A DNA stretch of 14,198 nucleotides from an uncultured Verrucomicrobiae bacterium (GCA_937976685.1 CALJWR010000130.1:1-14198); one strand, 5' to 3'. Positions 1,482 through 11,297 are shown, numbered from the stretch's first letter. The notes: generated by a model from the sequence alone, not told the origin. Translations and numbers: made by a program.

Positions 1482-2108
1482 ATGGGCCACCTCTTCAAAT
1501 CTCGGAAGGAGCGGGAACGCGAGGCGCGGCGGGAGGAACGTCGGGCGTTTCGCCAGGCGGAGAATGCCAGTGAGGACGTGAAGGACCGAATGCGGGAGAT
1601 GGAGCGCGACGCCCGCACACAGTGGGCGCAGGCACGCGAGGCCTTGAAGGCGGGCCAGAATGCGGAGGCTCAGAGGCTGCTCATTGGGTACCGAGCTCGC
1701 CTCGTTCTGATCACAAAGCTGAAGCAAAAGGTATGGGTTTTCGAGCAGTACCTTGCCAAGCTCCGTGCGGCGAAGTCCGACCAGCAATTCTCCGCCGCGT
1801 TGGGGGCGATCAACAAGGTGATGCGTATCGATCCGGATCAAGTGGCCGACGTCTTCGAAGAGGCCGAGGATCTGGTCGGCGAACAGATCGACACGGACCG
1901 GTTTTGGCAGAAACTCCACGAGAAGGAGGTTCAGGGCGCGGCGGCATCCCTGGAGGACCGGATTCCTACGGTCGAAGAGCTCAGTGTCCAGCTCCAACAG
2001 GAGGCGGCGGCGGAGGTCGGCGGCTCGGCGGCAGTGACTGGAGATCTGATTTCGGCGCGCGTGGCCGCCGGTCGCGATCGGGTGAAGAAACTGTTGGACG
2101 GAAAATGA
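1482..2108 (+). CDS. ESCRT-III (Snf7/CHMP/Vps2-24 family) protein.
   Basis: SD AAAGGAG upstream and high GC3. The 208 aa length is typical of ESCRT-III. The N-terminus MGHLFKSRKE parallels CHMP2A MDLLFGRRKT (basic helix alpha0/1). 'ALKAGQNAEAQRLLIGYRARLVLITKLKQ' parallels CHMP2A 'MAKQGQMDAVRIMAKDLVRTRRYVRKF'. 'ALGAINKVMRIDPDQVADVFEEAEDLVGEQIDTD' parallels the alpha4/5 'AMKGVTKAMG...IQKIMMEFERQAEIMDMKEE' region. The C-terminus is acidic, followed by 'DLISARVAAGRDRVKKLL', which resembles a MIM1 (DxxLxxRLxxLK/R). The stop TGA at 2106-2108 abuts the next gene. Confidence 0.75.
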   Translation: MGHLFKSRKEREREARREERRAFRQAENASEDVKDRMREMERDARTQWAQAREALKAGQNAEAQRLLIGYRARLVLITKLKQKVWVFEQYLAKLRAAKSDQQFSAALGAINKVMRIDPDQVADVFEEAEDLVGEQIDTDRFWQKLHEKEVQGAAASLEDRIPTVEELSVQLQQEAAAEVGGSAAVTGDLISARVAAGRDRVKKLLDGK

Positions 2109-3245
2109 TTGGACGCGTGGCGAAACATGAATTTCCTACTGGAGAAAAAACAGGAACACGAGAGAGCGTGTGAGCTCGCCATCCAGGGAAACCGCAGCAC
2201 GGAAGCGGTGTTTCACGCGGCCAAAGCTGCCGAGTTCGCGTTCGCGCTGGCGGAGCGCGCCGCCGATGGGATCGCGCAGCGGTATATCGAGGATGCGGAA
2301 GGCTGGCTAGAGATCGCCGAGCGTCTCCGCGCCGCTCCGTTGCCGCGTCTAGGCTCTTCTCCCAGCCGTGCCGCTCGACGGACCTCCGATGAGGCCGACG
2401 TGCTCGCCGCCGACGATTGGCTCGTCGCCTCTCGGCCCTCTGTCTCGTTCGACCAAATCGCCGGCATGGCAGACGCGAAGCAGGCCATTTTCGAGATGGT
2501 CGTGTATCCTCTCCGGGAGCCCGAGGCGGCGCGTTCCCTCGGCCTCAAGCCCGGTGGCGGTCTGCTTCTATATGGTCCACCGGGAAATGGCAAGACAATG
2601 CTGGGCAAGGCGGTCGCCCATGAATTGGACGCACCGTTTTACTATGCCTCGGGCGCCCAGATCCGATCCAAGTGGCATGGGGAATCCGAGCAAAAGCTTC
2701 GATTATTCCTCCGCACCGCAAAAGAACAGCCTGTCGCCGTCGTGTTTCTCGACGAAGTGGACGGTCTTCTGCCCCGGCGTGGCGGCAGTTCTGTCGTGGA
2801 CAACCGCATCGTGACCCAGTTTCTTGCCGAGATCGGTGGTTTTGAGGAGTCGGACAACGTGCTGCTCATCCTCGGCGCAACGAACAAGCCGTGGGAAATC
2901 GACGAAGCCGTGTTCCGCACCGGCCGGTTCGACCAGAAAATTTATGTCGGCCTGCCCGACGCCGAGGCCCGCCGCGGCATTCTCCAGATGCACTTGCAGG
3001 GCACGGCGGTTGAACCCGGGTTTTCCATCAACGACTGGGTGGACCGCTTCGACGGCTATGCTGGCAGTGACATCGTGGCCATCGTCAACGGCGCCAAACG
3101 CCGAGCCCTGGCGAGAACTGCAAGGGATCGGACCCCGCCCATCCTGTGCTCGGCGGACATCGAGGCGGCCATGGCAACGATGCCACGGTCAGTGACGCCG
3201 CGGATGTTGAAGGAATACGAGAACTTCGCGCGTCAGAGGTTTTGA
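2109..3245 (+). CDS. Vps4-like meiotic-clade AAA+ ATPase with an N-terminal MIT-like 3-helix domain and a Vps4 C-terminal helix.
   Basis: Walker A is GPPGNGKT and Walker B is VVFLDEVD. Pore loop 1 'SKWHGESE' matches the KW(M)GESE signature of Vps4/katanin/spastin. Arginine fingers sit in 'AVFRTGRFDQ'. The C-terminus 'MPRSVTPRMLKEYENFARQRF' parallels Vps4 'RPTVNEDDLLKQEQFTRDFG' (Vps4_C). The N-terminal ~75 aa 'NFLLEKKQEHERACELAIQGNRSTEAVFHAAKAAEFAFALAERA..IAQRYIEDAEGWLEIAERLR' is helical and MIT-like. The start is either TTG at 2109 (directly after TGA, with GGACGGA upstream) or ATG at 2127. Confidence 0.9.
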   Translation: MDAWRNMNFLLEKKQEHERACELAIQGNRSTEAVFHAAKAAEFAFALAERAADGIAQRYIEDAEGWLEIAERLRAAPLPRLGSSPSRAARRTSDEADVLAADDWLVASRPSVSFDQIAGMADAKQAIFEMVVYPLREPEAARSLGLKPGGGLLLYGPPGNGKTMLGKAVAHELDAPFYYASGAQIRSKWHGESEQKLRLFLRTAKEQPVAVVFLDEVDGLLPRRGGSSVVDNRIVTQFLAEIGGFEESDNVLLILGATNKPWEIDEAVFRTGRFDQKIYVGLPDAEARRGILQMHLQGTAVEPGFSINDWVDRFDGYAGSDIVAIVNGAKRRALARTARDRTPPILCSADIEAAMATMPRSVTPRMLKEYENFARQRF

Positions 3246-3246
3246 G

Positions 3247-4161
3247 ATGGAACGATGCTGTATCTGTGGCCGCGATCTGCCCAACCGGTACGCCGTGGCC
3301 GGTCGCTGCGAAGAATCGGGATGCTCCGCGCCTTTCTGTGCGCTACATTGGGACTGCGGCAACCACCGATGCCGAGCACACGGTTACCAGGAACACGATC
3401 GGCAGCCACCGACCAGGTCCGCTGCGGAGGAGGACGCGATGAGAACGCCGAACCCACCGAATCCCGACCCTGCCATCACGCCGCCCACACGGCCGCCGGA
3501 TCGCGCGAAGATCCAGGCAGCCATCCAAGAGGCGTTGACGCTGGCCCGCCGTTTGGGCACGGGCGCCGTCAGCCTCTATCGCCGGTTGCGCCACATCCGC
3601 ACGACCGAGGAGATGCTGCGCATGATCAAAGAGACCGCCTCGAAGAACGAGGCCCGCGCCGGCGAGTTGTCCGCTCGCCTGGAGAGTCTTTACAACCAAC
3701 TCATCGAGAAAAAGAAGGCCTGGGAAACCGCGCCACCCGCGCGCCGGCAGGTTCTCGAAGCGGAGTTAAAGACGTTGCTGGCCATGCACCAGGCGGCCGT
3801 GCGCGAACACGGGATCGTGCTGGAAAACCAGCGCGTGCTCGCACAGGTCCGCGGCCGCATTCTAGAAGCCGAGGCGTATGGCATGGCCGGCGTCACCGAG
3901 GCGGAGATCGACGAATGGGCCGACGTGATCGAGGCCAAAGCCGGCGACGCCGAAAACCGGCTCGACGCCCTTCGCGATCTCGAACAAGCGGGCCGACGAC
4001 GCGAGCGGGAATCGACCCACGAGGACTTTCTGAATCAGCTTTCGCAGTTCAGTGAACCGGCAGCGGCGCCCTCCTCGCCGGAAGCGACCGCGGACCGCCC
4101 GCCCCCGCTCGCTGATCCTCCAGCGGCCAATGGACTCGAGCCTCCACCGCAGGACGATTGA
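3247..4161 (+). CDS. Zinc-ribbon / Pro-rich linker / coiled-coil protein, a probable second Snf7/ESCRT-III-like paralog.
   Basis: ATG at 3247 lies 1 nt after the TGA of the AAA gene, indicating coupling. The N-terminus 'CCICGRDL...CEESGCSAPFCALHWDCGNHRCRAH' is a Cys-rich zinc ribbon, followed by a Pro-rich linker. 'ARAGELSARLESLYNQLIEKKK...LENQRVLAQVRGRILEAEAYGMAGVTEAEIDEWADVIEAKAGDAENRLDAL' parallels Snf7 '...LEQQRMALEQANTN..LKAMKQGAKAM...IDKVDDLMDDITEQQEIAQEISDAI'. The C-terminal tail is acidic and Pro-rich. The overlapping frame 3255-4055 is Arg-rich junk. Confidence 0.7.
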   Translation: MERCCICGRDLPNRYAVAGRCEESGCSAPFCALHWDCGNHRCRAHGYQEHDRQPPTRSAAEEDAMRTPNPPNPDPAITPPTRPPDRAKIQAAIQEALTLARRLGTGAVSLYRRLRHIRTTEEMLRMIKETASKNEARAGELSARLESLYNQLIEKKKAWETAPPARRQVLEAELKTLLAMHQAAVREHGIVLENQRVLAQVRGRILEAEAYGMAGVTEAEIDEWADVIEAKAGDAENRLDALRDLEQAGRRRERESTHEDFLNQLSQFSEPAAAPSSPEATADRPPPLADPPAANGLEPPPQDD

Positions 4162-4255
4162 CATCGCCCTGCCCGCCCGGTGCCACTGACGATCTCGCCG
4201 GCGCCCCTCCATAGCAAACGCGCTCCTCTGCCTCGGCGGGGCGTCTTGTCACTGG

Positions 4256-4275
4256 CTAGCGCGGGGACGCGCTAG
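4256..4275. terminator. GC-rich hairpin between convergent operons; candidate bidirectional terminator.
   Basis: Perfect inverted repeat CTAGCGCG-GGGA-CGCGCTAG (8-bp stem, 4-nt loop). It lies 95 nt after the plus-operon stop (4161) and 9 nt after the minus-operon stop (4284). No U-tract follows on either strand, which is common in high-GC genomes. Confidence 0.4.
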
Positions 4276-4283
4276 GCGCCAGC

Positions 4284-5372
4284 TCAACGGGGACGCCGAG
4301 TCGCGGCGAGCAACATGCGCAACACGATCAGCGCAATCAACACTGCGAGCGCGTACAGTACATAGATCGGGTGGCCTTTGAGCCAGAGCCAGACCTTTTC
4401 TATCACCGTATGTGGCGCCGCGATGAAATGCTCCGCGCGGGCCTCCAGCGTGTCGCTCCACACAATGCCATCGAGCGTTTGAATCTCGATCTGCACCGCC
4501 ACGCGTGCCTCGTAATTGGTGCCAGTCAAATCCGACGCTCTTTGAATGCGGCGATACAGATCGCGCACGGCCCCCCGCAATACGCCATCGGCAACCTGCG
4601 GTTGATCGCGGAGAATCAGTCGCGCTTGGCCGAGCGTCTGAACGTCCTTGTCCACCAGCGCCGCCGGGCTGGCCCGGAACATGTCTTTGACCAGACCGGT
4701 CACATAACCGTCGGTGTCGCCCGCCAGCGGCACCAGCAGTACCTTGCGGACGGATTTAATCTTTTTGGACGCAGACAGCGACTCTGCGCCTTGGTCGCTC
4801 ACCTGCCGCAAGGCCGCCCGTAGCGTCGCATCGAGATTCACCAATCCCGTCAGTTCGGGAACCAGGTAGATGCGCTTCGCGAACGTGCCACCCCAGATGT
4901 GCTGCTTGGTTTCGATAGAACTGGCGTGAACCTCTAGTTCGACGAACACGCGCTCCCGGGTCACGCTCGCCTCCCTCAAAAAAGCGTAGAGGAGTAGCTT
5001 GGCTCCCTGCAGCCGGCCGAACTTAGCGAGCGTGGCGGGGTCCAGGATGTCGGCCTTGCGCTCGCTCCACTCGATCTCCGTCAGGATTTCTTCCCATAAG
5101 GGATCCGTCTTGCCCTCGACCACATTGAGGCCGACCGCGGAGCCGGCGTTCTTCAACAGATTTTCAACATACCGGCTGGCAGTGTCGCCGGGGACCGGCA
5201 GCACGGCGATCGGCGCCGCCTTTGGAATGGGCGCCCCGGCCATCGCGGCCTGCGCTTCGCCCACGGCTTGTTGGATCGCCTGTCGGACCTCGTCGGTGAA
5301 CTCGGCGGCGAACGCCGACGCCGCCCCCACGAGCCACGCCGCCACCATCCAACGCTGCATGCTTCGCTTCAT
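4284..5372 (-). CDS. Exported protein with two tandem CsgG/LpoB/TolB-N-like domains and a C-terminal TM anchor.
   Basis: SD AAAGGAG lies 9 nt upstream of the ATG at 5372. The signal peptide is MKRSMQRWMVAAWLVGAASAFA|AE. Repeat 1 is 'IAVLPVPGDTASRYVENLLKNAGSAVGLNVVE...AKLLLYAFL' and repeat 2 is 'VLLVPLAGDTDGYVTGLVKDMFRASPAALVDKD...'. This 'hhVLPh.G......h...L...L......hV' pattern is typical of the CsgG/LpoB/FlgO fold. The C-terminus 'IYVLYALAVLIALIVLRMLLAA' is a TM helix. Confidence 0.8.
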   Translation of the reverse strand: MKRSMQRWMVAAWLVGAASAFAAEFTDEVRQAIQQAVGEAQAAMAGAPIPKAAPIAVLPVPGDTASRYVENLLKNAGSAVGLNVVEGKTDPLWEEILTEIEWSERKADILDPATLAKFGRLQGAKLLLYAFLREASVTRERVFVELEVHASSIETKQHIWGGTFAKRIYLVPELTGLVNLDATLRAALRQVSDQGAESLSASKKIKSVRKVLLVPLAGDTDGYVTGLVKDMFRASPAALVDKDVQTLGQARLILRDQPQVADGVLRGAVRDLYRRIQRASDLTGTNYEARVAVQIEIQTLDGIVWSDTLEARAEHFIAAPHTVIEKVWLWLKGHPIYVLYALAVLIALIVLRMLLAATRRPR

Positions 5373-5402
5373 CGGAATGACTCCTTTTAATGGCCCGGTT
5401 CG

Positions 5403-6167
5403 TCACCGGGGCTCGATGCCCAATTCGCGATAGTTTGCCAGACGGTTCAGAATCCCCTCGGGCACATCCCGACGGATATAGAGAATCCGGAACACCAGTT
5501 CGCGGCTGCCAAGGTCCTGACGAACCAGTCTGCACCATTTGATGCCCGGGATTGTCGAGACAACTTCGATAAAGCGCTGGGCATAGCGTGCGGCGTCGCT
5601 GCCGGGGAACAGCCGCCACGGCCGGGATATCACGATGTCGGCCGCCGCGAAATCGCCTATGCCGGACGTCACCGTTCGGACCGTCCACTCCGCGGCGGCG
5701 GCGCCCATCTTGTCGCCCAGCGACTGCAAGGCTAGATCTTCTCCCAAACGGCGGTCACCGCGAGCGTTGATGACCTCGCGCCCCAGCACCTGCCCGTCAT
5801 GCGGACGCGTCACGAGGGCATTCGCCGTCCCCTCGAACACGAAATAATTCCCGCTGCGATCGAACAGCGTGTAGTTCACGGCCACGTTGACATCGACATC
5901 GGGATCCCGGCGGTTGAGAGCGAAGGCCTTCTCCGCCAGGCCGTCCTCGATGCGCAGCCGCACCCGCTCGGCGACCGGAGATTTGCCCGTCACGGCTACG
6001 GCGATGTTTAGGTGTGCCACCTCGCGCAGACTGGCCTTGACACCGCCGATCTCGTCGGTCGCGTCCGGCCTGCGCTCCCGACCGAATGTGGCGCAACCGC
6101 CGGCGAGCATCCCAGCCATGCCCGCGACGACCGCGCGTCCAATCATGCGTCGCATCACTTCGTTCAT
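5403..6167 (-). CDS. Lipoprotein with CsgG/LpoB-like domain.
   Basis: SD AAGGAG lies 6 nt upstream of the ATG at 6167. The signal peptide plus lipobox is MNEVMRRMIGRAVVAGMAGMLAGG|C. 'LNIAVAVTGKSPVAERVRLRIEDGLAEKAFALN...VNVAVNYTLFDRSGNYFVFEGTANALVTR' has the same fold signature as the neighbouring paralogs. A 30-nt gap separates it from the downstream gene. Confidence 0.8.
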   Translation of the reverse strand: MNEVMRRMIGRAVVAGMAGMLAGGCATFGRERRPDATDEIGGVKASLREVAHLNIAVAVTGKSPVAERVRLRIEDGLAEKAFALNRRDPDVDVNVAVNYTLFDRSGNYFVFEGTANALVTRPHDGQVLGREVINARGDRRLGEDLALQSLGDKMGAAAAEWTVRTVTSGIGDFAAADIVISRPWRLFPGSDAARYAQRFIEVVSTIPGIKWCRLVRQDLGSRELVFRILYIRRDVPEGILNRLANYRELGIEPR

Positions 6168-6199
6168 GGGTTCTCCTTCCAGCGGGACTGGCCCCGCCG

Positions 6200-7903
6200 C
6201 TACACTTCGATGAATTCCTCGTAATCCTTGATCTGTCGGAACGTCCAGACTTGCGCCGAACGACCCCCGCCCAACGGCACTTCGTCCCCGGGCTGAATCC
6301 AGCGCGGATCACCGACTCCCCGGATGGCAAACGCCGCGCCCTGCCTCCACGCGACGAGGGGCCGAGCCTCCGGCAACACGGCCGCCAACGAGCAACAGCG
6401 GTTAAGCAATACGTACGTTTCCTTCACTGAATCGCGGCGCCGGATCACTACACAGGCTGGCGCCCCGGGAGGACAACGGTTCTCCATCGGACACGCGCCC
6501 CCCCCTGTCGTCGGACACGCCAGCGGTGTGACATCCGCCATCCATCCGCGCGATCCGCGTTTGACGGCATCGCCCAGCCCGATCGCTGTCGCCGTATCCG
6601 CTGGGAGTTCGGCGCTCCCTCCCGGCGGGATTCGGTCGGTCCCGACAAACGTCCCAAACGCCGACGGCCGGTCGATTCCGCTCTTCGGGTCCGGGCCAAG
6701 ATCTCGCACCACGCAGTGCCGGCCGTGGATCTCAATCCGTGCATGGCGGCGGCTGATGGAATTGTTGATGGCCGCCAGCGCCGTCTCCCACGCGCGACGG
6801 TCCCCATGCCAGGCCGGAAATAGACGGGTCATCACGTCGCACGCCGACGAACGCCCCAGTTGCCAGGAAGTCCCCGAAAGGAGATGAATCCGCCACCCAC
6901 CCACCACGAGGGTCAGACGCTCACTCCGGGCCCCTGGCGGCGGCTGCCCAAGGGGGAGCCCGGAGGACTCCACGGCCGTGGCCTCGGACGGCATCGCCGG
7001 GAACAGTTCCAGACGGCTCCACGCGCTTGGGACATTCTCAATTCGCGACAACATCGCATTGAGCGAATCATCCGCCCGCGCGTCTCGTTTCAGTTGTTCG
7101 ATATGGCCGAGGGCATGGCTGAAATCGACAATGCTGCCCCGATCGGCCTCGATATGGATGACCGTGGCCGCCCGGTTCAGCGCTTCGCGGGCGTTCTGCT
7201 GCTGTGAATGGATCGTGATGGAGAACTGCGTTTCGAACCATCGTTCCTCGCCGTTCAAACGGTAGCCGATTCGAAGCGTGACCGCGGGGTTCCCGACGAA
7301 TCGGGGACAGTAGCTCAACGCATGCGGCCACACCATCCCCTTGCGGGCGATCACCCGGCAGAGATGGATCTGCTGCTGCGCATCCTTGCCATCGCCGACG
7401 TTCAAATGAAGTTGAAGATTTTCGATGCCGTCGCTGTGAAACTTGAACCTGAACTCGAAACGCAACACGACGCCTTCGATGAACAGACGGGCGCGATTGA
7501 ACTCAACCGTCAAATCCTTGCAGTAAACCGGCGTCGATGTCCATGTCGATGTCTCGTCCGGAGCGCGCGACCGTGAACAGGACGTCGATGGCGGCAGCAC
7601 GCCGTCCAGAACTGGCAACAGCCCCCCACCCGGCGCCATCGGGTCCGCCGCCGACTCGGTCGGGACCGCCCAACCACCTGTCCGGGCCGGCACGGCCGCG
7701 TTCGAGAGCGCGGCGAGATCTATCGCATTGTAGCCGCCGAGAGCCACGCCGTCGGACAGATCGGAAACCGGCAGAACGCAGTCCGGTCGTGGATCCGCCG
7801 CCATCCGTGCACCGCAGAGGTGGCAGAACCGCGGCGGCGCCCCGTCGTCCGTGCGCGGCACCGGAGCCTTACAGTTGGAGCATCTCGCCACAGACTCGCT
7901 CAT
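6200..7903 (-). CDS. Zinc-ribbon + FHA-domain protein with additional uncharacterised domains.
   Basis: The true start is ATG at 7903 (MSESVARCSNCKAPVP...FCHLCGARM, a CxxC...CxxC zinc ribbon). It forms an ATGA overlap with the upstream gene's stop. The track ORF from 8095 is an Ala/Gly/Arg-rich extension with no start signal. The FHA signature is 'WQLGRSSACDVMT...ISRRHARIEIHGRHCVVRDLG..SAFGTFVGTDRI...ATAIGLGDAV' (GR...SRxHA...DLgS.nGTfVn...GD). A beta-rich middle domain and a Cys-rich C-terminal domain are unassigned. Confidence 0.8.
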   Translation of the reverse strand: MSESVARCSNCKAPVPRTDDGAPPRFCHLCGARMAADPRPDCVLPVSDLSDGVALGGYNAIDLAALSNAAVPARTGGWAVPTESAADPMAPGGGLLPVLDGVLPPSTSCSRSRAPDETSTWTSTPVYCKDLTVEFNRARLFIEGVVLRFEFRFKFHSDGIENLQLHLNVGDGKDAQQQIHLCRVIARKGMVWPHALSYCPRFVGNPAVTLRIGYRLNGEERWFETQFSITIHSQQQNAREALNRAATVIHIEADRGSIVDFSHALGHIEQLKRDARADDSLNAMLSRIENVPSAWSRLELFPAMPSEATAVESSGLPLGQPPPGARSERLTLVVGGWRIHLLSGTSWQLGRSSACDVMTRLFPAWHGDRRAWETALAAINNSISRRHARIEIHGRHCVVRDLGPDPKSGIDRPSAFGTFVGTDRIPPGGSAELPADTATAIGLGDAVKRGSRGWMADVTPLACPTTGGGACPMENRCPPGAPACVVIRRRDSVKETYVLLNRCCSLAAVLPEARPLVAWRQGAAFAIRGVGDPRWIQPGDEVPLGGGRSAQVWTFRQIKDYEEFIEV

Positions 7904-9186
7904 TGCGCCGGCGCCTCCGGAATCGCGTATGCGAAGTGGTCGGGCGCAGCCCGCGCCATGGCCCGAGCGTCCCCGGCCACGGCGCCGCCGTCCGGCACGT
8001 GCGCCAGCTCCCCCGGCCGCCGGTTCACATTCAGCGAGGGCGTCTGCGTGATCACCTGCTCGAAGTCCGCCACGCTGTGCCGCTCGATGCCACATCTCGC
8101 GTGGAACGCAACGAACGGCGCGGCCGGCTCCAATGCCGTCCCCAACCTGCGCGCGATCGCCGAACAGACCGCATGCCCAACGATAGAGCGCGGCGGCTGG
8201 CCCCAGATATGCAAAAAAGCCTCTTCAATCTCCGGCTCCGCTTCCTCCCACACCGCCATTGCGACCTGGGCCGTGTCCGGCCCGGCCGACGAATCCACCA
8301 CCGCCTCCAACGCCTCGGCCGGGGATCTGGCGCCGCAAATAGGCCGGCGCGCGTCCGTGCGAACTGCCGCCGCCGTCAACGGCGGAGGCGAGGGCTTCGC
8401 CGCTGGCCCCAGCGACCGGGCCTCGCGTTCCATCCATATGGCCCAGCCTTCATTGGCAAATCTCGTCGAGTTGAACTCCGTATCCCATTTTTCCCTCAAG
8501 ATGACGCCGTCCGTCGATGTCACGCTCTGCCTCGGATGACGTGCGCGCCGGTACCGTTGCGTCTGTAGAGCCCCCGACTCGCGCCCCCGCGCCGTGGTCG
8601 CGCCCAAGAGCCCGTGGCCCCATTGTTCGTGAATCGCTGTGTCGGTCATCGCCAACAGCACGCGCCAATCCGCCACGTCGGCTCTCGCCGACTCCAACTT
8701 GAACACCTGCGCGAGCAGCCATTCGATCAGGAAACAGCCCCGGCCGTCCAGGAACACGCCCCAGACGCCGCCATCGCGCCCCGCCTCAGTGACTTTGATT
8801 TGCTCTTCCAGCCAGGCCCAAACCTGGGCCATGCTGACGTCTTTGTGCGACAACAACAGCCCGTCGAACTCCTCCGCCATTCCGTACAACATCACGGGGA
8901 ACGCCCATCCCAGCCCATACCGGTTCACCCCTACAGACGACGTAAGGACCCGTTCCACCACCGCGATCTGCGGCACACCCCGGACCTCCCCCATCGCGGG
9001 CAACGGACGGGCGCGATTGGCCGGAACGCCGGCGACGGCCTGCGCATCGGAACGGCCGCTCCTCACGGCGGCCCCGCCCCCGTACACCGCTGGGTGCAGC
9101 CGCCGCCCGCAGCCGGGACAGTCGAAAGCGCCCGCGCTCGCGTCGCGCCCCCACCCACCGCACGTCGCCCTCGATCGATGCGCCAA
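7900..9186 (-). CDS. Hypothetical protein (no recognisable domain), translationally coupled to the ZnR-FHA gene.
   Basis: The long ORF has protein-like composition. Its stop TGA overlaps the downstream ATG (ATGA at 7900-7903). The start is uncertain: TTG at 9186 (28 nt after the upstream stop, GGGGG upstream) or ATG at 8994 (MGEVRGVPQIAVVERVL...). The antisense frames are Arg/Pro-rich junk. Confidence 0.6.
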   Translation of the reverse strand: MAHRSRATCGGWGRDASAGAFDCPGCGRRLHPAVYGGGAAVRSGRSDAQAVAGVPANRARPLPAMGEVRGVPQIAVVERVLTSSVGVNRYGLGWAFPVMLYGMAEEFDGLLLSHKDVSMAQVWAWLEEQIKVTEAGRDGGVWGVFLDGRGCFLIEWLLAQVFKLESARADVADWRVLLAMTDTAIHEQWGHGLLGATTARGRESGALQTQRYRRARHPRQSVTSTDGVILREKWDTEFNSTRFANEGWAIWMEREARSLGPAAKPSPPPLTAAAVRTDARRPICGARSPAEALEAVVDSSAGPDTAQVAMAVWEEAEPEIEEAFLHIWGQPPRSIVGHAVCSAIARRLGTALEPAAPFVAFHARCGIERHSVADFEQVITQTPSLNVNRRPGELAHVPDGGAVAGDARAMARAAPDHFAYAIPEAPAQ

Positions 9187-9213
9187 GTTCGGCCCCCGTC
9201 CTTATCGCCCCTT

Positions 9214-10905
9214 TCAGCGGAAAATCTGCTGCGTGCTCCCGCCGTGCCCCGCCTTGCCGACCGCCTCCACGGCGGCTTTCAGAATGCGCTCGAGCCGTTC
9301 CATCATCGCGTCCCCTTCCTCGCGACGTTCGCGGTACAGGCGTTCGAAATCCTCGCGCTTCACTCGCCCCATGTCCGCCAGCGCCGCCGCGGCCGCCGGG
9401 GATTCCGCCGCCACTCCAGCCAGAAGCTGCTCCGGCGTCATCCCCGCCGCGCGCGCCTGCTGATCCAACCGCAGCAAATGCTCTCGCCGCGATGGGTCGG
9501 GAATGGCCGCGATGAGGGTTTGCAGGTCCATCCCCTGGAAAGCAGCGGCTCTCTGTGCCTCCGCCTCCAACTCAATCCGGGATTTTTCCGCCTTATACTT
9601 CAGGTGCGCCGACATCGTCTCGCTTTGCACGCGGAGCCACTTCAGCGACTCCTCCACCTCGGCGTCCACCGCAACCGCCTTAATCCGGGCCTGCGTTTCG
9701 GCGTCCTGAACCAGCTTGCCCCGAGTGTAGTCATCCCATTGGAGCTTAACGCCAATCTCGTGAGCGGCCGCCTCCATCTCCCTCGCCATCTGGTACGCCG
9801 CTTCCTCCCGCTCCAGTTCATGGCGATGAACCAGGCGCAGCCGTTCCATCTCGTGATTCCGGTGCGCCTCGGAAACGTCCCGCTCCTGCGCCAGTTGCCG
9901 CACGTACGCCTCGAGATCCGCCTCCGTCTTGAACTGCTGCATCTTGTCCGTCGCCAGCAGTTCCCTGAGCCGCTGGTCGAACTCGATCTCGCGCCGCCGA
10001 ACCTCCAGCGCCCCGACCTTTTCGCGAAGCTTCTCGTACTCCGCACCGGTGAAACACACCGCCGCCAGACGAATCAGTTCCAACCCATGCCGCTCCAGCG
10101 CCGTGGCCAACGTCGTGGCCATCGCGTTCTCCAAGTGCAGCCGCCGATCCGGGCTCTTAACCAGATCCTCGATCGTCGAGGCCGCGCACAAGCTTTCTGC
10201 CGCCAGACGGATCTCCCCGGTCATGGGCCCGGCAAGCTCCGCATAGGACAGACGATCGGCATTCTTGAACAGGTTCTCCACGAACGCCGCCGCGCGCCGC
10301 TCGGTGAATCGAAGCACCGCTTCGGTGTACAGCTCCAGCGGCAGCTCTTCGGCGCTGCGCAATCCTTCCAGCCGCAGCGGCAGCACCACGTCGCCGGCCT
10401 CAACTAGAATGAACTCCCTCGGTGGCGGAGCGCCCCACCAATTGATCTTGCGCGCCGTGTTGTCCGGCATGTGTCGCCCCGGCCCCAGCACCGTCTCCAC
10501 GCGGCCCCCTTCCAGCAGGATCGCCGCCTCGCCAGTGTGCACAATCAGCCCGCCAGTTAGGATTCGTTGGACGTCGCCCACGTGGAACCTCTGCGCGAAC
10601 ACGCCGGGCTTTCTCGCCCAGCCCTCCGCGTTGATGTCGTCCCGCGACTCAGGGTGCAGGCGCTGCTTGCAATTCCAGCAGAACCGCGATTCGTTTCCGA
10701 CCCACTTCCCGCAGTTGGGACACTTCCACCATCCGCCCGGCGCTGTGCTGCCACACCGACTGCAGTTCCGAGCCGCTTTGGGCACGCGGTTCCCGCACCG
10801 CGGCCAATGTGGATTTTTCCGGGCTTCTTCGAGCGCGGCACCCGTCAACGCCTCGCCTGTCTTGGGATCGATCAGCGCTTGGCAGCGATCGGCAAATAGA
10901 CCCAT
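9214..10905 (-). CDS. Double zinc-ribbon + SPFH/Band-7 (flotillin-like) protein with a long EA/ER-rich coiled coil.
   Basis: The start is ATG at 10905, with a perfect SD AAGGAGG 6 nt upstream; the track's 11013 start lacks any signal. The N-terminus has four CxxC pairs (CGNRVPKAARNCSRCG...WKCPNCGKW...FCWNCKQ). The SPFH core is 'FHVGDVQRILTGGLIVHTGEAAILLEGGRVETVLGPGRHM...ILVEAGDVVLPLRL...' (compare SPFH 'G...GPGLHF'). The C-terminal ~250 aa form a coiled coil with 'IELEAEAQRAAAF' EA repeats like the flotillin C-terminus. Confidence 0.85.
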   Translation of the reverse strand: MGLFADRCQALIDPKTGEALTGAALEEARKNPHWPRCGNRVPKAARNCSRCGSTAPGGWWKCPNCGKWVGNESRFCWNCKQRLHPESRDDINAEGWARKPGVFAQRFHVGDVQRILTGGLIVHTGEAAILLEGGRVETVLGPGRHMPDNTARKINWWGAPPPREFILVEAGDVVLPLRLEGLRSAEELPLELYTEAVLRFTERRAAAFVENLFKNADRLSYAELAGPMTGEIRLAAESLCAASTIEDLVKSPDRRLHLENAMATTLATALERHGLELIRLAAVCFTGAEYEKLREKVGALEVRRREIEFDQRLRELLATDKMQQFKTEADLEAYVRQLAQERDVSEAHRNHEMERLRLVHRHELEREEAAYQMAREMEAAAHEIGVKLQWDDYTRGKLVQDAETQARIKAVAVDAEVEESLKWLRVQSETMSAHLKYKAEKSRIELEAEAQRAAAFQGMDLQTLIAAIPDPSRREHLLRLDQQARAAGMTPEQLLAGVAAESPAAAAALADMGRVKREDFERLYRERREEGDAMMERLERILKAAVEAVGKAGHGGSTQQIFR

Positions 10906-10925
10906 GGCCGTCCTCCTTGCCGCCG

Positions 10926-11297
10926 TCAGCGGCGTTTCGTTTCCTCGTCCCGCGCCGCAGCCGCAGAAGCTTCGTGCTCCGCGCACCGCCGCACTTTCCG
11001 TCGCGTCCAACAATCGTCACAGAGGGGGGCGCCGCACTCGACACAATGCTGCCGGACCGAACCCCGGCTGCGATAGGCCGTGCCGCACGCCGCACACACC
11101 AGCCGCGCCGCGTCCGTCTTTGTTTTCTCCAGAAAACTCTCGAGATCTCGGCGCTGGATCCGATAAACCTTGCCCAGCCGCGCCGCCGGGAGCTCGCCCG
11201 AGCGAACCAGCTTGTAGATGAGCTGATAGTTCACTCCCATCAGCTCCGCCACATCCTCCAGCGACATGAATTCCTTTTCGATTCGCGTCATGGCCAT
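10926..11297 (-). CDS. Excisionase-family (MerR-superfamily) HTH DNA-binding protein with a C-terminal zinc ribbon; probable cluster regulator.
   Basis: ATG at 11297 (MAMTRIEKEFMSLEDVAELMGVNYQLIYKLVRSGELPAARLGKVYRIQRRDLESFLE matches the excisionase-family HTH signature 'L...E.A..LgV....vY.Lv..G.lPa.r.G...ri...dle'). The C-terminus 'CAACGTAY...HCVECGAPLCDDCW' is a C4 ribbon. It lies 20 nt upstream of the SPFH gene. The track's longer ORF begins with TTG at 11345, inside the promoter region. Confidence 0.8.
   Translation of the reverse strand: MAMTRIEKEFMSLEDVAELMGVNYQLIYKLVRSGELPAARLGKVYRIQRRDLESFLEKTKTDAARLVCAACGTAYRSRGSVRQHCVECGAPLCDDCWTRRKVRRCAEHEASAAAARDEETKRR

Follow-up and report, generated by a model that had tools for sequence, protein, structure and literature searches.

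The segment at positions 1482 to 4161 of a 14,198-nucleotide stretch of DNA from an uncultured Verrucomicrobiae bacterium (GCA_937976685.1 CALJWR010000130.1:1-14198; here called the window) belongs to a conserved cluster of eight to nine genes (window positions 1482 to 11297) in the little-known Kiritimatiellia and Lentisphaeria. This segment probably encodes the core of a bacterial membrane-remodeling machine of the ESCRT-III/Vps4 type. Recent reviews limit the pairing of a Snf7-type ESCRT-III protein with a Vps4-like ATPase to archaea and eukaryotes, and a 2025 review describes Vps4-like ATPases as seemingly missing from bacteria (PMC7619361). An earlier, sequence-only reading of the stretch had proposed an ESCRT-III plus Vps4 module in a bacterium. 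Of that proposal, the Snf7-family gene (gene 1), the MIT-AAA gene (gene 2), and the bacterial host were retained, while the ESCRT-III identity of gene 3 and the assignment of the ATPase to Vps4 proper were not.

Gene structure of the locus

Three open reading frames (ORFs) lie on the + strand in one orientation, as had been read: gene 1 at 1482 to 2108, gene 2 at 2109 to 3245, and gene 3 at 3247 to 4161. Each is a real gene with a large conserved family. The 0-nt TGA-TTG junction described between genes 1 and 2 turned out to be an artefact of mechanical ORF extension. The public gene call starts gene 2 at ATG 2127 (372 aa; P0121), and M1 (MNFLLEKK) of this product lines up with the N termini of 29 of 29 aligned homologues; we therefore take ATG 2127, and not TTG 2109, as the start, which leaves a true gap of 18 nt. 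The 1-nt junction (TGA-g-ATG) before gene 3 had been placed correctly, given that M1, C4, and C7 are invariant in 22 homologues. The public call for gene 3 (3439 to 4161; 240 aa) removes a conserved N-terminal Cys/His zinc-ribbon domain, a domain that is also absent from the sequence-only reading. A weak sigma-70-like promoter match (TTGGCC-17-TAAAAT; 1432 to 1460, + strand) lies 22 nt upstream of gene 1 (one such match seen versus 0.5 expected by chance), and no terminator-like site was found on the + strand within 1482 to 4161.

Gene 1 encodes a Snf7-family ESCRT-III protein

The product of gene 1 (1482 to 2108, + strand; 208 aa) is a member of the Snf7 family of ESCRT-III proteins, has the canonical helical topology, and is not a PspA/Vipp1 protein. 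The window protein matched Pfam Snf7 (PF03357) with an E value of 7.8e-4 (19.6 bits, short of the gathering score, 27.3), and the same model matched every one of the 30 family members at E<0.01 (best, 5.6e-8), whereas Pfam PspA_IM30 (PF04012) matched 0 of 30 at that threshold. The profile searches thus assigned gene 1 neither to PspA/IM30 nor to a place outside the ESCRT-III families. Many relatives carry precomputed PF03357 annotations, and some are named "Snf7 family protein" by NCBI. When the family profile was searched against the PDB, the best matches were yeast Snf7 and Heimdall ESCRT-IIIB, both colinear, and no PspA or Vipp1 chains were found.

The AF2 model (pLDDT, 80) contains helices at residues 8 to 56, 60 to 96, 100 to 114, 124 to 132, 138 to 150, 164 to 179, and 184 to 206. 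It shows the ESCRT-III topology, in which a long alpha1-alpha2 hairpin precedes alpha3, alpha4, and alpha5. Foldseek ranked Asgard ESCRT-IIIB, CdvB2, the Snf7 core, CdvB, and Loki CHMP4-7 at the top (probability, 0.77 to 0.99, but E values of 0.13 to 0.4); the list was composed mostly of ESCRT-IIIB, CdvB, Snf7, and IST1, with PspA and Vipp1 further down. Foldseek E values were weak for the models of both gene 1 and gene 2 (0.1 to 1), so that the support lies in the families heading the lists. The Pfam, PDB profile, AF2, and Foldseek results agree with the earlier call of ESCRT-III over PspA/Vipp1. They correct its subtype: the best matches by PDB profile and Foldseek are of the Snf7/Vps20-32-60 (B) type instead of the proposed CHMP2A/Vps2 type.

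The basic N terminus (MGHLFKSRKE) and the acidic C-terminal part pointed out previously are both present. The hydrophobic/basic N terminus (1482 to 1562, + strand) is a candidate membrane-binding helix, alpha0, a role suggested by its likeness to ESCRT-III N termini. Its consensus is MxxLFKSKKERxRxxRRERR, with F5, R11, and R20 invariant (alignment A1), and the motif MxxLF..K within it resembles the N termini of CHMP6 and CHMP2A. At the opposite end, an amphipathic helix (2031 to 2099, + strand) is a candidate MIT-interacting motif. This helix, with the consensus RIxxGQERVKKLL, follows an acidic Gly-rich linker; in A1, L205 is invariant, and conservation is 90% or higher at R193, G197, R200, V201, and L204. 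In the AF2 model, it spans residues 184 to 206 and is preceded by low-confidence linkers (152 to 158 and 182 to 187).

Gene 2 encodes an MIT-AAA ATPase outside Vps4 proper

Gene 2 (2127 to 3245, + strand; 372 aa) encodes a Vps4-like ATPase in which the MIT-linker-AAA-C-terminal-helix architecture of Vps4 was borne out. An MIT-fold three-helix bundle (2133 to 2333; helices at residues 3 to 20, 24 to 44, and 47 to 69) is joined by a low-complexity linker (2334 to 2435), variable in both length and sequence in alignment A2, to an AAA+ module (2436 to 3242). The module contains Walker A GPPGNGKT (2574 to 2597), the pore loop KWHGESE (in SKWHGESE; 2670 to 2690), the second region of homology (SRH), FRTGRFD (2913 to 2933), and a lid with a C-terminal helix (2955 to 3242), all on the + strand. 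GPPGNGKT, FLDEVD, KWHGESE, ATN, and RxGR are invariant across A2. The protein matched Pfam AAA at 2.8e-36, as a single classical AAA domain, and NCBIfam CdvC at 197 bits (residues 90 to 375 on model positions 78 to 366 of 370); NCBIfam CDC48 D2 scored 199 bits. The best structural matches of the MIT domain include Sulfolobus Vps4.

The statement that gene 2 shows "every hallmark" of Vps4 proved too strong. The pore loop, Walker A, the FRTGRFD arginines, and the C-terminal sequence MLKEYENFARQRF are there; a search of gene 2 with Pfam MIT (PF04212) gave no match, Vps4_C (PF09336) remained below threshold (E=0.036; 14.5 bits versus 21.3), and the SRH deletion of the meiotic clade is missing. Furthermore, neither the KWxGESE loop nor the C-terminal helix is specific to Vps4, as VAT/Cdc48 D2 shares both: it has KWVGESE and can be aligned with gene 2 through residue 371, i.e., over the same C-terminal helix that is conserved in the gene 2 family. 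The beta-domain insertion in the lid (Vta1 binding) is absent from gene 2, as it is from archaeal Vps4; alignment of the latter to the gene 2 HMM is continuous (positions 2 to 270), while those of yeast and human Vps4 are interrupted near position 232, the insertion site. Gene 2 does not share the domain layout of Cdc48/VAT, having one AAA domain and an MIT N-domain, not two tandem AAA domains and a double-psi-barrel N-domain.

In neighbor-joining (NJ) trees, the only kind built and with few reference families, the AAA domain of gene 2 was sister to the whole meiotic clade (Vps4/CdvC/spastin) with 93 to 99% support. This grouping was stable under four distance corrections, after removal of the SRH block, and with the slowest-evolving columns only. 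Bootstrap support for joining gene 2 to archaeal Vps4 was 1 to 7%, and that for joining it to all Vps4 was 0%. As to whether the ATPase belongs with FtsH/ClpX-type proteins or with the meiotic clade, the NJ trees put it on the meiotic side, away from FtsH, PAN, and Cdc48. The SRH of the gene 2 clade reads FRTGRFDEKIY, with RxGRFD as in Cdc48/PAN/FtsH, and does not have the two-residue deletion (LR--RFxKRIY) found in CdvC, Vps4, and spastin; the motif N.PW is common to gene 2 and Vps4. By these sequence comparisons, gene 2 is placed not inside the Vps4 branch but as sister to the Vps4/spastin clade.

Gene 3 encodes a zinc-ribbon protein

Judged from alignment A3 (22 homologues), the product of gene 3 (3247 to 4161, + strand; 304 aa) is a predicted zinc-ribbon plus helical protein. 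It consists of an N-terminal two-zinc Cys/His ribbon (3247 to 3384, + strand), a variable Pro-rich linker, a conserved C-terminal region with the motifs AGRRRERE and DFxxxLxxF, and an acidic tail. In the ribbon, C4, C7, and C31 never vary, and C21, C26, H34, C42, and H45 show a conservation of 90% or more. Pfam zf-CRD gives weak matches in 20 of the 22 homologues. The likeness to Snf7 ascribed to this protein was undetectable: Pfam Snf7 matched only 2 of 22 homologues (E of at least 0.037), and an hhalign comparison of the gene 3 and gene 1 families detected no homology (Prob, 1.2%).

The three genes belong to a larger conserved cluster

Synteny over 31 related loci indicated a functional unit far larger than the three genes to which it had been confined. 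Beyond gene 3, the - strand of the window carries genes for a 362-aa envelope protein with a signal peptide, a periplasmic domain, and a C-terminal membrane anchor (4284 to 5372) and for a 254-aa lipoprotein with the lipobox LAGGC (5403 to 6167), neither of which matched Pfam. By tblastn, the former was detected in 11 loci, each time with the FHA or lipoprotein gene on one side and gene 3 on the other, and the latter was detected in 12. The lipoprotein fits the "lipoprotein- and sigma70-bearing" context that had been described; no sigma-70 gene is found in the window. A 567-aa zinc ribbon-FHA protein (6200 to 7903, - strand; N-terminal CSNC...CHLC) carries an FHA domain at 6599 to 6862 (- strand; Pfam FHA, 1.2e-6; 29.3 bits, above threshold) and was detected in 18 of 31 loci by tblastn (20 by ORF clustering), with its relative position unchanged. 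The 563-aa SPFH-zinc ribbon protein (9214 to 10905, - strand), which has a long coiled-coil tail, combines an SPFH/Band 7 domain (10066 to 10545, - strand; Pfam Band_7, 1e-8) with a double zinc ribbon (10669 to 10803, - strand; Pfam DZR, 3.4e-6). Its gene, found by tblastn in 20 of 31 loci, follows the HTH gene wherever the latter was detected. This HTH gene (10926 to 11297, - strand; 15 loci), the first of the conserved cluster, encodes a 123-aa candidate regulator with an HTH_17 (excisionase/MerR-like) domain (Pfam HTH_17, 2.7e-14) and a C-terminal zinc ribbon.

A gene cut by the contig end (13904 to 14198, - strand), its reading frame open up to the window edge, shows only a C-terminal FGE-sulfatase domain (Pfam FGE-sulfatase, 1.4e-20). 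In related loci, this domain forms the C terminus of Ser/Thr kinases beside the cluster; 23 of 31 loci encode a Pkinase-(DZR)-FGE-sulfatase protein, frequently directly after gene 2. Genes of this type could be widespread in these genomes, which makes the link to the kinase less strong than the other links.

Within the stretch of DNA examined at each locus, gene 2 is linked to gene 1 in 24 of 31 loci and directly adjacent to it in approximately 15, and gene 3 is present in 22 of 31, mostly immediately upstream of gene 1. No gene 2 was found near gene 1 in four loci (L002, L003, L006, and L016) despite coverage of several kilobases downstream. The full order (HTH, SPFH, FHA, lipoprotein, anchored protein, and genes 3, 1, and 2) was seen in L005, L013 (HTH gene off the contig start), L020, and L025 (genes 2 and 1 swapped), and L010 has this order minus the two envelope genes. 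In addition, a distant gene 1 relative in a Clostridia locus (L038) adjoins an MIT-like AAA-AAA protein and an SPFH-DZR protein, and its C terminus, DDAIDKELEELKKK, fits 5 of 6 MIM1 positions.

The contig proved to be bacterial and not archaeal or eukaryotic: all 31 related loci are from PVC bacteria, on contigs of up to 6.1 Mb. For genes 1 and 2, every listed best homologue with a source name is likewise bacterial (PVC), and there is thus no sign of the recent horizontal acquisition that had been suggested. Cluster proteins share 50 to 70% identity across class-level diversity with stable gene order, which fits vertical inheritance.

Comparison with known systems

The nearest archaeal systems are CdvB/CdvC of Sulfolobales and the euryarchaeal "Main," "Halo_FHA," and "Meth_adaptin" systems of Makarova et al. 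2024 (PMC10936438). Archaeal ESCRT loci include SPFH-coiled coil-zinc ribbon, FHA, and Ser/Thr kinase partners (PMC10936438). The present system differs from these in its bacterial (PVC) host, in an ATPase that lies outside the Vps4/spastin clade and retains the RxGRFD SRH, and in the addition of gene 3, the lipoprotein, and the anchored periplasmic protein; CdvA, winged-helix (ESCRT-II-like), and adaptin-appendage proteins were not found among the proteins scanned here. With eukaryotic Snf7/CHMP4, gene 1 shares the alpha1-alpha6 topology and an acidic linker followed by a C-terminal helix, and with eukaryotic Vps4, gene 2 shares the MIT and AAA domains and the KW.GESE pore loop. Unlike the eukaryotic system, the cluster has no beta-domain, Vta1 site, or ESCRT-0/I/II and only one clear ESCRT-III paralogue, whose candidate MIT-interacting helix deviates from the MIM1 consensus (3 of 6 positions matched).

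Among bacterial systems, PspA/Vipp1 (IM30), including B. subtilis pspA-ydjGHI, has no MIT-AAA partner, and gene 1 fits Snf7, not PspA_IM30. Vps4-related ATPases such as Opitutus ACB74714.1 occur in PVC and other phyla and are predicted to act near the membrane (PMC11237479). In their operons, a TPR plus 6TM protein replaces snf7 (PMC11237479), whereas in the present cluster the ATPase still has a Snf7-family gene at its side, and the SPFH, FHA, and zinc-ribbon genes accompany the pair.

Alternative explanations

The cluster could instead be an envelope-stress module of the PspA/Vipp1 style, with gene 1 forming a self-sufficient membrane-stabilizing polymer that the SPFH protein recruits, as happens in pspA-ydjGHI, and the AAA protein a regulator or chaperone working in a non-Vps4 manner. 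This is unlikely. PspA loci are indeed known to combine SPFH, zinc-ribbon, and ESCRT-III-superfamily genes (PMC10936438), the cluster holds envelope proteins and an HTH regulator, and PspA and Vipp1 do occur lower in the Foldseek list; yet the Pfam and PDB profile results for gene 1 favor Snf7, gene 2 has an MIT fold and groups with Vps4/spastin, and gene 1 is laid out like a substrate of Vps4, with a flexible linker leading to a conserved C-terminal helix. It is also quite unlikely that gene 2 derives from Cdc48 and acts as a general unfoldase, its three-helix N-domain being generic and its location beside coiled-coil genes having no ESCRT-like meaning. VAT/Cdc48 proteins are its best whole-sequence PDB matches, VAT D2 scores highest with the family HMM (225 bits, slightly above the 193 to 204 bits of archaeal Vps4), the SRH is of the Cdc48/PAN/FtsH form, and Pfam MIT and Vps4_C fall below threshold; grouping with Cdc48 D2 had 0% bootstrap support.

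Very unlikely, in our view, is an anti-phage or abortive-infection defense system that damages or seals the membrane upon infection. Gene 2 matches the PADLOC IetA and TRIP13 models and the HTH protein matches mad1, but these are generic AAA/HTH matches (E of 8e-29 versus 1e-58 for CdvC/CDC48), and a PADLOC search of the other eight cluster proteins gave nothing significant. Multigene clusters of AAA, SPFH, kinase, and zinc-ribbon proteins look like defense islands, and an AAA_14/DUF4143-like gene (sequence judged by eye) lies near one locus; the vertical pattern of inheritance noted above argues against defense. Least probable is an archaeal contig, or a cassette recently transferred from archaea; in either case the arrangement would be ordinary. 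Although NCBIfam CdvC aligns with gene 2 nearly end to end, Sulfolobus Vps4 is among the best structural matches of its MIT domain, and bacterial VPS4-like ATPases have been read as transfers from archaea (PMC11237479), the PVC affiliation of all 31 loci, including a 6.1-Mb chromosome, and of the named homologues, the lipobox lipoprotein and FGE-sulfatase gene in the window, and the 1 to 7% bootstrap with archaeal Vps4 all oppose it. An ancient, as distinct from recent, transfer from archaea is still conceivable.

Proposed function and significance

As an ESCRT-III/Vps4-type machine, the system may work as follows. Gene 1 would polymerize on the cytoplasmic face of the inner membrane via its basic/hydrophobic N terminus. 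Its recruitment or positioning may be aided by the SPFH-zinc ribbon scaffold, in analogy to B. subtilis, where the SPFH protein YdjI localizes PspA (PMC10936438), and to the SPFH protein of the archaeal Meth_adaptin system, and gene 3 may assist in this. The MIT domain of gene 2 would bind gene 1 at its exposed C-terminal helix and, perhaps, gene 3 at its conserved C-terminal motif. A hexameric gene 2 ATPase would then thread subunits through its KWHGESE pore, and the resulting disassembly or remodeling of the polymer could deform or cut the membrane. The FHA protein and the neighboring kinase suggest a phosphorylation-dependent process, and the lipoprotein and the anchored periplasmic protein suggest coupling to the envelope. 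Membrane repair, vesicle formation, invagination, and division are candidate processes that it might serve.

A broader proposal is possible but rather doubtful: bacteria may have their own vertically inherited ESCRT-III/Vps4-type machines, in which an MIT-AAA lineage that branched off ahead of the archaeal/eukaryotic Vps4-katanin-spastin radiation operates, in at least two phyla, on polymers of the Snf7 family in concert with an SPFH-zinc ribbon scaffold. The two would be PVC (the present cluster) and Clostridia (L038). If this proposal is true, the coupling of ESCRT-III to an MIT-AAA disassembly ATPase would not be an archaeal invention; it would be older than the split between bacteria and archaea, or it would have crossed between the domains very early.

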